Part shown: positions 23,453 through 25,821 of the stretch, in pieces | Layout of the letters: each line of letters opens with the position of its first letter | How positions within the stretch are numbered: position 1 is the stretch's first letter | Source of the DNA: Candidatus Latescibacterota bacterium | GTDB taxonomy: Bacteria; Latescibacterota; UBA2968; UBA8231 | Direction: 5' to 3' | Assembly: GCA_965248265.1 (NCBI GenBank) | Contig: CBDFJF010000002.1 | Location: forward strand, 352,001 to 416,000 | Length of the DNA stretch: 64,000 bases | Translations under genes and position numbers: made by a program | The notes under the pieces: model-generated | What the model was told of the DNA's origin: nothing | Database searches by the model: none | Seen by the model: the letters and a program-made list of their open reading frames with translations, nothing else

Positions 23453-24886
23453 ATGCCCGCATCCGGAATCGATTTCAAGAAACTGAGCAGGAATTTTGCC
23501 TTTGCGAGCACCGGGCTGATGGTCTTGCTGCTCGGACTCGGGCAGGTTGAAATCCTGTTCTTCCTGCATCCCCTCAAGATTCCGCTGGTGGCGCTGACTG
23601 CCACAAGCTGGGCCGGGTTCTATCTGGTCAAGACCCTGCTCGATCCGATGCGCGGTGGGAAGCAGATCGTCACCACCGAGGGCCCCGGTGAGGAGGTGAT
23701 TCAAAAGGCGACGCTCGTGAGTCTGCAACAACAACCCGGTTTCGTCGCCGGCGACGTGGCTGAGGAGGAGTTCGTCAAGGGCGAGCAACGGTTCCTGGCG
23801 TTTCGCTACAGCGAAGCGGCCGATCACTTCAGGAAATCCCTCGACGCCTACTCGTCTCTGCCGACGTTGCTGAACCTGGGCGCTGCATTGTTGAACAATT
23901 CGGCGTTCGAACAGGCTCAAGAGATCCTGAACATGGGGTTACAGACGGCGCAGAGAATGGAGAAACGGCTTTTCGAAGCGGCCTTTCACGCCAACCTGGG
24001 GACCATCAACTCGCGTCTCGCCAACTACGAAACCGCGACCGAAGCCTGCGACACGGCCCTGGATCTGTTCCGCGGGGTCGGGGACAGCCGCGGCCAAGCG
24101 GACGTGTTGCTAACGATGGGCAATTTGCAGCTGAATCAGGGCGACCGCGACAAGGCCAAACGCACCTTCGAGCACGCGCTCAAGCGATACGAAGTGGCCA
24201 AGAGTTCGTTAGGCCGTGCCAATGCGGTCGGCAACCTCGGCAACCTGCTTCTTGGAGCGGGGGAGTTCGACGAGGCGCTCAAGCACCATCAACGGGCATT
24301 GGAAATCCACACCCAGACAGGCAACCCGCTGGGCCGCGCCAACGCCTTGAGCAACCTCGGCAACATCCGCTTCCGCACTGAGAAATACGACGAGGCGCTG
24401 AAGGCTCACCAGGCAGCACTCAAGATCTACGAGCAGATCGGCGCGGCACTGGGGTCCGCGGGAGCTCTGGCCAACATCGGCAACGTCCTCTTCAAGCAGA
24501 GCAAGGCGAAGGAAGCGCTGGCGACCTACGAGCAGGCGTTGAAAATTCACACCGAAGTCGGCAATGCCCTGGGAAAGGCGAACACGCTCACCAACATGGG
24601 GAGTCTGTATTCGCGGATGCGACAGGAACAGGATGCTCTCGACTGCCTGCGACAGGCGATGCGGATCTTCGAGTCGGTGGGGGCGCGCACCAAGGGGGTG
24701 GAAGCGGCGGAGGAACTGATTCGGAGAATCACGGGGGGCAAAGCCAAAATAGAAACGACGGAAGATCCGGCAGATGAGACTGACGAGTCGTCGAATGCGG
24801 ACGAAGTCGAAGCTGAAGCTGAAGCGGAAACCAAAGACACCGGCTCACGGCAGACTGAAACCGACGAAGACACTACGGCGAGTTAG
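23453..24886 (+). CDS. Membrane-anchored TPR protein with acidic C-terminal tail
   Basis: Two N-terminal hydrophobic segments, then ~40-aa repeats (G.ANAL.NLGN…EAL..HQ.AL.I) and a D/E-rich tail. Confidence 0.85.
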   Translation: MPASGIDFKKLSRNFAFASTGLMVLLLGLGQVEILFFLHPLKIPLVALTATSWAGFYLVKTLLDPMRGGKQIVTTEGPGEEVIQKATLVSLQQQPGFVAGDVAEEEFVKGEQRFLAFRYSEAADHFRKSLDAYSSLPTLLNLGAALLNNSAFEQAQEILNMGLQTAQRMEKRLFEAAFHANLGTINSRLANYETATEACDTALDLFRGVGDSRGQADVLLTMGNLQLNQGDRDKAKRTFEHALKRYEVAKSSLGRANAVGNLGNLLLGAGEFDEALKHHQRALEIHTQTGNPLGRANALSNLGNIRFRTEKYDEALKAHQAALKIYEQIGAALGSAGALANIGNVLFKQSKAKEALATYEQALKIHTEVGNALGKANTLTNMGSLYSRMRQEQDALDCLRQAMRIFESVGARTKGVEAAEELIRRITGGKAKIETTEDPADETDESSNADEVEAEAEAETKDTGSRQTETDEDTTAS

Positions 24887-24897
24887 GCAGAAGGAAG

Positions 24898-25012
24898 AAA
24901 AAAAAGAGCAGCCAATTCACCTGAATGCCGGTTTCTATTTTGTCGAAGTCCCACATTACAGTGGAGAAACTTCCAACTGGGCATTCGCTTATGAATTCAG
25001 GCCACCCCTTTG
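24898..25012 (-). ncRNA. Candidate rod-shaped small RNA (~115 nt)
   Basis: Nested pairings AAAGGGGUGGCC/GGCUGCUCUUUU, AAUUCA/UGAAUU, GAAUGCC/GGCAUUC, GAAGUU/GACUUC and CCAC/GUGG. It ends in U8, and a sigma54 motif lies directly upstream. Confidence 0.55.
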
Positions 25013-25023
25013 CCAAGATGGAC

Positions 25024-25038
25024 GCAAATGCCGTACCA
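25024..25038 (-). promoter_or_regulatory. Sigma54 (-24/-12) promoter candidate
   Basis: Minus strand TGGTACGGCATTTGC vs consensus TGGCACG-N4-TTGC, with correct GG-N10-GC spacing. Confidence 0.6.
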
Positions 25039-25137
25039 CCTGTGCACCCAGTGAAGCGGGGCGGCGGGGTCTGGAGTAGCGGCCGTTTGTTCCTACGGTC
25101 GGTCCACTACCGGGCAGGATATTCCTGCAAATAGAGC

Positions 25138-25821
25138 TCACGCCGGCTTTTGGGCTTTGATCTCTTTGATCCAGCCTACGACTTCACCGCATTTCGTCGT
25201 GAGGGCGTCAAAGTCCCCGGCAGCGACGATTTCCTTGGTGACCAGTTTCGAACCGATACCGACGCATGCTACGCCCGCATCGAACCAGGACTGAAGGCTC
25301 TCCCTGCTGGCATCCACTCCGCCGGTGGGCATGATTCTGGTCCATGGACAGGGTCCGGCAACCGATTTGACGAAGGCGGGGCCTCCGACTTCACTGCCTG
25401 GAAAAACCTTGACGATCTCGACACCAAGTTCTTCGGCCTCAGCGATTTCGCTGACGCTTCCGCAGCCCGGCGCATAGGCGATCTTGCGGCGGTTGCAGAC
25501 GCGGGCGACGTCGGGATTGAGCAGCGGGCCGACGACGAAATTGGCTCCACTGGAAATGTAGAGTCCCGCGGTGGGTGCATCGACGATCGAGCCGACACCG
25601 AGAATGACATCAAGATCGCTGTCGATGATGTGCTGGGCGGCGTCGGCGAAAACGCGGTAGGCCAGGTCGCCCCGATTGGTGAACTCGACGACGCGGGCGC
25701 CGCCCGCAGCGCAGGCCTCGATGATGGCGATGACGGTGTCGAGGTCCTTGTGATAAAACACCGGCACAACGCCGACGTCGAACATGGTGTTGAGGACCTT
25801 CATGCGATCGTACTGAGCCAT
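25138..25821 (-). CDS. eda: Bifunctional KHG/KDPG aldolase
   Basis: VVEFTNR, GVGSIVD, GANFVVGP, PGC, VKVFPG and MPTGGV. Confidence 0.93.
   Translation of the reverse strand: MAQYDRMKVLNTMFDVGVVPVFYHKDLDTVIAIIEACAAGGARVVEFTNRGDLAYRVFADAAQHIIDSDLDVILGVGSIVDAPTAGLYISSGANFVVGPLLNPDVARVCNRRKIAYAPGCGSVSEIAEAEELGVEIVKVFPGSEVGGPAFVKSVAGPCPWTRIMPTGGVDASRESLQSWFDAGVACVGIGSKLVTKEIVAAGDFDALTTKCGEVVGWIKEIKAQKPA

Follow-up and report, generated by a model that had tools for sequence, protein, structure and literature searches.

The question raised by this locus is what, if anything, is encoded in the gap between two convergent genes of a Candidatus Latescibacterota genome. The whole stretch of DNA that was analysed, referred to here as the window, comprises 64,000 nt, and the gap is flanked by a TPR-repeat gene on the plus strand (23453-24886) and a KDPG/KHG-aldolase gene on the minus strand (25138-25821). 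A preliminary description proposed that the gap holds an undescribed, sigma54-dependent small RNA on the minus strand and named an Rfam scan (6S, SRP and others), a search for homologues, a covariation analysis and the confirmation of rpoN as ways of checking this. The elements that the following argument uses are listed below; R1 denotes a covariance model built from the MAFFT alignment A1 (29 copies), and types A and B denote copies with sigma70-type and sigma54-type promoters, respectively.

25024..25038, minus strand: sigma54-type -24/-12 promoter TGGTACGGCATTTGC, by direct reading, with GG at 25037-25036 and GC at 25025-25024
24898..25012, minus strand: predicted sRNA transcript of about 115 nt, type B (sigma54 paralogue), from R1 and the MFE fold
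25000..25011, minus strand: basal helix P1, 5' strand AAAGGGGUGGCC, from the fold and the consensus structure
24898..24913, minus strand: 3' strand of P1 (24913-24902), which shares bases with the U8 run (24905-24898), from reading and fold
24998..24999, minus strand: nearly invariant UG two-base bulge between P1 and P2 (A1 columns 13-14, at least 90% conserved)
24970..24974, minus strand: GGAAG, 5' strand at the base of the apical helix P4, invariant in all 29 A1 sequences
24940..24948, minus strand: CUUCGACAA, the 3' strand of the P4 base together with the first bases of the 3' bubble strand, from alignment reading
24930..24944, minus strand: 3' strand GACAAAAUAGAAACC of the asymmetric internal bubble, opposite CAGUUG at 24979-24974, from the fold and the alignments
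25114..25128, minus strand: inverted repeat GCAGGAATATCCTGC, 10 nt past the aldolase stop; the -24 element follows about 90 nt further on

At the level of the single locus, the preliminary description is borne out in each of its parts. The near-consensus -24/-12 promoter that it placed on the minus strand is read as TGGTACGGCATTTGC, with both doublets in a spacing like that of TGGCAC-N5-TTGC; the -24 element itself is imperfect, with TGGTAC in place of TGGCAC. The irregular hairpin of about 115 nt said to lie behind this promoter begins at A25011, 13 bases past the last C of TGGTACGGCATTTGC and thus at the right distance, and ends in U8, and its internal bubble indeed sets CAGUUG against an A-rich stretch. 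The transcript start (25012 +/- 2) is derived from the -12 element, and its end is taken as the last U of U8. The minus-strand orientation, which had been argued from G-U pairs, is favoured by folding of a 131-nt stretch, for which an MFE of -39.7 kcal/mol (z -2.2; 4 of 200 shuffles fold equally well) is obtained on the minus strand and -26.9 kcal/mol (z -0.13), no better than shuffled sequence, on the plus strand. The fold is therefore asymmetric between the strands. The statement that the promoter has no protein gene behind it on the minus strand also holds: the ORFs below the hairpin are mere shadows of the TPR gene, no credible gene lies 3' of the promoter, and the flanking genes are convergent. 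The 12-bp helix P1 followed by U8 has the form of an intrinsic terminator, the base of the rod being predicted to serve as the terminator stem; a simple terminator scanner did not list this hairpin, as its loop limit of 3-8 nt excludes the 90-nt insert. The single-sequence z-score is modest, and it is the comparative evidence that is decisive for the element being more than a chance fold.

BLASTN comparison of the 261-nt gap with 61 related genomes matched 28 of them, in the hairpin region only and at 70-86% identity, and also revealed a second copy within the genome itself. R1 recovers the window copy at 24898-25011 on the minus strand with 101.4 bits over all 115 model positions, with no reverse-strand match listed at the locus, and finds exactly two copies in the genome (112.5 and 101.4 bits). 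The homologue search proposed earlier is positive in 75 of the 76 genomes that belong to the same family, the single miss being a genome that is 73% complete. Across the phylum sample, the RNA is present in 111 of 151 genomes (own genome counted) and in five of 14 families, namely f1 (62/63), f2 (25/30), f3 (2/2), f4 (19/19) and f6 (2/2), and R1 has no match in the 34 genomes of the nine other families. Forward matches score 47-119 bits and reverse-strand matches at most 28.8 bits. A pattern scan of named genomes returned 119 stretches, and 39 of the 80 listed match R1; the titles of these matches name Candidatus Latescibacterota or Latescibacteria (29), Gemmatimonadota or similar (nine) and 'uncultured bacterium' (one). 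The other 41 listed stretches, from Planctomycetota, Acidobacteriota, Bacteroidota, Bacillota, Actinomycetota and others, have no R1 match and were dropped as chance pattern matches. The predicted RNA is carried by nearly every genome of this Latescibacterota class.

Sequence variation among the copies respects the fold. The consensus rod comprises 32 pairs, and in A1 (28 distinct rows among the 29 copies) 11 of them show compensatory change, while 97.3% of the cells are paired, compared with 40-48% in slid controls in which the partners are shifted by 1-3 columns. None of 500 shuffles of A1 reaches the observed value on four of five measures; for further pair types, 54 of 500 do. Alignment A3 (80 distinct rows), which was fitted to R1 and is hence biased towards it, has 96.3% of cells paired and compensatory change in 18 of the 32 pairs. 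In helix 1, such pairs number 7 of 17 on the MAFFT alignment and 11 of 17 on A3. A different kind of constraint is seen at the base of the apical helix, where the four pairs of GGAAG:CUUC are GC in 79, AU in 80, AU in 80 and GC in 80 of the 80 rows of A3, with one compensatory change and no G-U alternates. This invariance without G-U alternates indicates that both strands are constrained in sequence, beyond pairing; compensatory change in the other three helices affects 16 of 24 pairs (A3). Also fixed in A1 are GACAA, which adjoins the P4 base, and the UG bulge. Within CUUCGACAA, A1 shows no variation in CUUCGACA and hardly any in the final A, and family f4 has the version CUUCGUCAA. The bubble sets 5-6 nt against 14-17 nt below an apical arm of about 13 bp, and its 3' strand is rich in A where the copy is of type B and rich in U where it is of type A. 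Of the 29 A1 copies, 27 carry a U-run after P1. The run is absent from two sigma54-type copies of one genus (L022:1493-1602 and L027:1311-1413), and in L022 the basal helix is followed by CCGAAAAAA instead; these two transcripts, if made, must end differently or be processed.

The upstream regions divide the family into two promoter classes. The 70 bases upstream were read for 82 copies, and the counts given here refer to 64 copies from 51 genomes of f1. A sigma70-type promoter, TTGAC-N17-19-TAnnnT, precedes 51 of these 64 copies, one per genome. The -24/-12 motif TGGYAY-N5-TTGY precedes 11 copies in 11 genomes, all of them second copies and the window copy included; it begins 25-31 nt ahead of the model start and is present in 11 of the 13 second copies but absent from all 51 sigma70-type copies. 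All 13 genomes with two copies have one of the sigma70 type. The remaining two of the 64 copies have neither promoter and are both divergent second copies (L030:753-864 in G005 and L076:401-509 in G016, with 67 and 47 bits); these may be decaying paralogues. At the window copy, no overlapping sigma70 promoter was found on the minus strand by a promoter scanner, and reading of the upstream sequence gave no -35 element. The hexamer CATCTT stands at window positions 25015-25020, where sigma70 copies have the -10 box TATCTT, and may be a remnant of an ancestral sigma70 promoter.

The type A copy of the same genome lies at G000:C2:342218-342336 (L032:1501-1619, minus strand; 112.5 bits), 34.6 kb from the type B copy and 9.7 kb before the window start, hence outside the window, and has a near-consensus sigma70 promoter, TTGACA-N17-TATGTT. 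It is located directly 3' of a class I/II aminotransferase gene, a position common to the type A copies of several genera: such a gene precedes the RNA in four of four loci tested, and a gene for an Ig-like-repeat protein follows it in three loci tested. Type B copies have neighbours of their own, with a KDPG aldolase gene upstream in three genera (G000, G011 and G007) and an AdoHcy (S-adenosylhomocysteine) hydrolase gene convergent downstream in three genera (G019, G027 and G007). This synteny agrees with a maximum-likelihood tree of the RNA body, from which the promoters were left out and in which ten of the 11 sigma54 copies, which come from five genera, form one clade (support 95/81), the tree being a coarse guide that rests on 117 columns. 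The eleventh sigma54 copy (L024) falls outside this clade and clusters with a second copy, lacking a promoter, from its own genus. On this evidence, type B appears to be an old paralogue, patchily distributed and vertically inherited, and the window copy is a minor, sigma54-type member of a near-universal family whose main copy is predicted to be sigma70-driven. A constitutive sigma70 gene beside a patchy, vertically inherited sigma54 gene would constitute a clean natural experiment on how an sRNA gains a new regulatory input.

The machinery that a sigma54 promoter needs is encoded. The gene rpoN, the presence of which had been named as a check, is found in the genome (PF04552, 211 bits) and in 76 of 76 genomes of the family. 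The sigma54-activator domain PF00158 has 34 matches in the genome, and the 29 of these that exceed 150 bits indicate a very large sigma54 regulon; these include a divergent adjacent pair about 14 kb from the type A copy (G000:C2:327390-328974). The strict motif TGGYAY-N5-TTGC has 84 occurrences in the 7.32-Mb genome, both strands counted, so that a chance match in the right 10-nt slot is improbable, and eleven such matches are far more so. For TGGCAC-N5-TTGC, 35 occurrences compare with about 17 expected by a hand estimate from base composition. As to the activator, inverted repeats lie 27-119 nt upstream of the motif at ten of the 11 sigma54 loci; their sequences differ, often on a GGAA...TTCC theme. 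The repeat GCAGGAATATCCTGC of the window could serve as a binding site for an activator or could mark where the aldolase transcript ends. No activator-site motif shared upstream of the 11 sigma54 copies, or between genera, was found, and no gene for an enhancer-binding protein adjoins any sigma54 copy. The sigma54 dependence put forward in the preliminary description is made likely by a motif kept at a fixed distance in 11 copies and by the presence of rpoN and of the activator-domain matches.

Whether the RNA is already known was addressed with the 4227 models of Rfam 15. No model reaches its gathering score across the 64-kb window; with E-values up to 10, the interval 24700-25300 yields only a chance sR30 match (11.8 bits), and in E-value mode 20 homologous loci yield only noise (ncS025 with 26.3 bits, E 0.48, and MIR1507). 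The SRP RNA model (RF00169) has no match in the window, and the SRP RNA of this genome is located elsewhere (G000:C1:2555255-2555355, 69.5 bits). The 6S model (gathering score 46.4 bits) has no match in the window, at the site or in the whole genome, nor in any of the 116 genomes of f1-f4 and f6. A search of the literature on non-coding and regulatory RNAs of Latescibacteria retrieved no description. The RNA family is previously undescribed, as had been supposed. That the element is a small RNA, the other half of that supposition, is supported by compensatory changes, promoters of its own, a U-tract terminator, variable neighbours and a convergent gene downstream at this locus. The element would accordingly represent a new family of a known type, the sigma54-dependent bacterial sRNA. 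Rfam holds clade-specific orphan sRNA motifs derived from comparative genomics, and the present family is like these in being a conserved, covarying hairpin with promoter and terminator in one clade; it is unlike them in its absence from all 4227 models and in having sigma70 and sigma54 forms. To our knowledge, the Latescibacterota have no cultured member. A family as widespread in its class as housekeeping RNAs, with a well-supported structure, is absent from Rfam and is ready for immediate use in annotation. What sets it apart is how broadly it occurs in an uncultured phylum and the pairing of sigma70 and sigma54 copies.

Parts of this arrangement recall characterized small RNAs. In the GlmY/GlmZ system, one sibling serves the partner protein of the other as a decoy. 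Like GlmY and GlmZ of the Enterobacteriaceae, the two copies are homologous sRNAs of one genome under different sigma factors; in E. coli, a sigma54 and a sigma70 promoter overlap at glmY, and glmZ has a sigma70 promoter only (PMC3045617). Unlike GlmY/GlmZ, the RNA is a single rod, has no match to these families in Rfam and shows no GlrR-type triple binding site, and RapZ (PF03668) was not found in the genome. The Qrr RNAs of the Vibrionaceae are Hfq-dependent seed-pairing RNAs. With the Vibrio Qrr RNAs (PMC10162802), the window element shares a -24/-12 promoter, a short non-coding RNA, an intrinsic terminator and paralogous copies. It differs from them in that Hfq was not found in the genome, no sequence similarity is seen and the main copy of the family is of the sigma70 type.

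The reading preferred here, which taken as a whole is considered probable, is that window 25012-24898 on the minus strand is an independently transcribed, sigma54-dependent type B sRNA gene. The sigma54-RNA polymerase would bind TGGTAC-N5-TTGC at 25038-25024, would be activated at this promoter by an enhancer-binding protein and would begin transcription near 25012. The whole transcript would fold into one irregular hairpin, the basal helix of which would form, together with U8, its own terminator. The RNA would then act in trans and bound to a protein, a component of the reading that is itself put at slightly less than an even chance. Recognition would take place at the junction between the apical helix and the asymmetric bubble (GGAAG:CUUC, then GACAA) and at the conserved UG bulge. 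Protein binding is favoured because selection on both strands of one helix suggests sequence-specific recognition; the invariant helix could alternatively reflect a seed that must be masked. Types A and B both retain this core, but their bubble strands and closing stems are not alike; the sigma54 copy would therefore provide, in response to a signal, either an additional dose or a decoy version of that binding module. The A-rich and U-rich bubble strands fit such signal-dependent supply or decoy and, equally, base pairing with partly different seeds. For a partner of this kind, the invariant helix-bubble junction marks the predicted binding site. Among candidate proteins, Hfq, ProQ/FinO, RapZ (PF03668) and Ro/TROVE were not found in the genome (92% complete). 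The preliminary description suggested a promoter mimic or a protein sponge, roles on which the evidence speaks neither way; a sponge for CsrA of the CsrB/Rsm type is, however, unlikely: the single invariant GGA is base-paired, and CsrA does not follow the RNA, being found in 26/63 genomes of f1, 0/19 of f4 and 0/20 of g19, with the RNA in 19/19 of f4 and 19/20 of g19. Covariation has removed a second GGA from L058, L080, L081 and L098.

The possibility that survives best beside protein binding, although it is regarded as unlikely, is a chaperone-free base-pairing (antisense) regulator in which the 3' bubble strand, with GACAA and its A/U-rich tail and perhaps extended into CUUC, is a seed for mRNAs. 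The partly different bubbles of the paralogues would then select partly different targets under different sigma factors. Such a role suits the usual anatomy of a trans-acting sRNA, with its own promoter and intrinsic terminator, and a conserved single-stranded GACAA that adjoins a variable A/U-rich stretch, in which A predominates in type B and U in type A. However, the invariant single-stranded stretch measures just 5 nt, the rest of the conserved block is paired, and the partner strand GGAAG is also invariant and admits no G-U alternates. Conservation of at least 70% across several families, as observed here, is unusual for seed-type sRNAs, and neither Hfq nor ProQ was found in the genome. 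The complement TTGTCGAAG is not enriched near candidate start codons (15/175, compared with a mean of 4.6/34 for shuffled 9-mers), in a weak test whose counts are dominated by coding sequence.

Considerably less probable is a compact 6S-like RNA, that is, a mimic of an open promoter that binds RNA polymerase holoenzyme and replaces canonical 6S. Some bacteria have two differently expressed 6S paralogues. Like 6S RNA (RF00013), the present RNA has the shape of a rod interrupted by one large internal bubble, occurs almost throughout its clade, usually as a single copy, and has a strong, near-consensus sigma70 promoter. The failure of the 6S model in the genome and in the 116 genomes of f1-f4 and f6 is compatible with replacement, as are the full-length, sub-threshold matches of that model in f9 (5/6) and f12 (1/1), two families that lack this RNA; moreover, no classical sRNA chaperone follows the distribution of the RNA, which leaves a universal partner such as RNA polymerase. 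Against these points stand the size of the element (115 nt, and 103-124 nt within f1, compared with 150-200 nt, or about 180 nt, for 6S), the very asymmetric bubble, the short apical arm and the lack of any 6S match at the site even at E-values up to 10. Seven further families (27 genomes) have neither RNA, and the complementary pattern may reflect the limited reach of the Rfam 6S model, which gives a signal in only 4-5 of 14 control genomes. The absence of a detectable canonical 6S RNA in these genomes makes a 6S-like role directly testable. The sub-threshold matches themselves (L226-L231, in f9 and f12) score 22.7-43.2 bits, with a cut-off of 46.4, and L226-L229 fold into U-tailed rods of about 178 nt; the matches probably represent genuine 6S RNAs of Latescibacterota with small genomes, missed because of the Rfam threshold. 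More far-reaching proposals, to be seen as long shots, are that a miniature, 6S-replacing polymerase-binding RNA has a sigma54 sibling that would retune global transcription on one enhancer-binding-protein signal, or that a decoy sibling in the manner of GlmY/GlmZ would free the housekeeping copy from a shared protein. If true, either would represent a new form of cross-talk between sigma54 and sigma70 programmes through paired RNAs.

Two further explanations carry very little weight. A mere long terminator common to the convergent aldolase and TPR genes, next to a sigma54-like motif that arose by chance, would suit a U8-ended hairpin located 11 nt past the TPR stop codon and 127 nt past the aldolase stop codon, and the hairpin probably also stops read-through from the aldolase gene, but it is highly improbable given a 115-nt sequence that is found again, at loci that are not homologous and behind a promoter of its own, in 75 of 76 related genomes, a -24/-12 motif conserved in 11 copies and a plus-strand fold no better than shuffled. 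Hardly credible, too, is a cis-acting leader or riboswitch-type attenuator, or a coding function of the 47-codon minus-strand ORF that overlaps the element (24873-25016): a large Ig-like-repeat ORF does follow on the same strand at seven type A loci among the 24 loci listed, but the gene downstream is convergent here and at three or more other type B loci, the genes downstream of type A loci vary, copy lengths of 103-124 nt fall into all three modulo-3 classes (17, 18 and 29 copies), and substitutions are pairwise-compensatory and not codon-periodic.

Some elaboration of the rod is seen outside f1. In copies of f2-f4 (L078-L084, L095-L101 and L106), an extra short hairpin stands between the -10 box TATATT and the main rod, and the copies L085 and L086 of f6 have an apical insertion of about 25 nt, for a total length of 140 nt.
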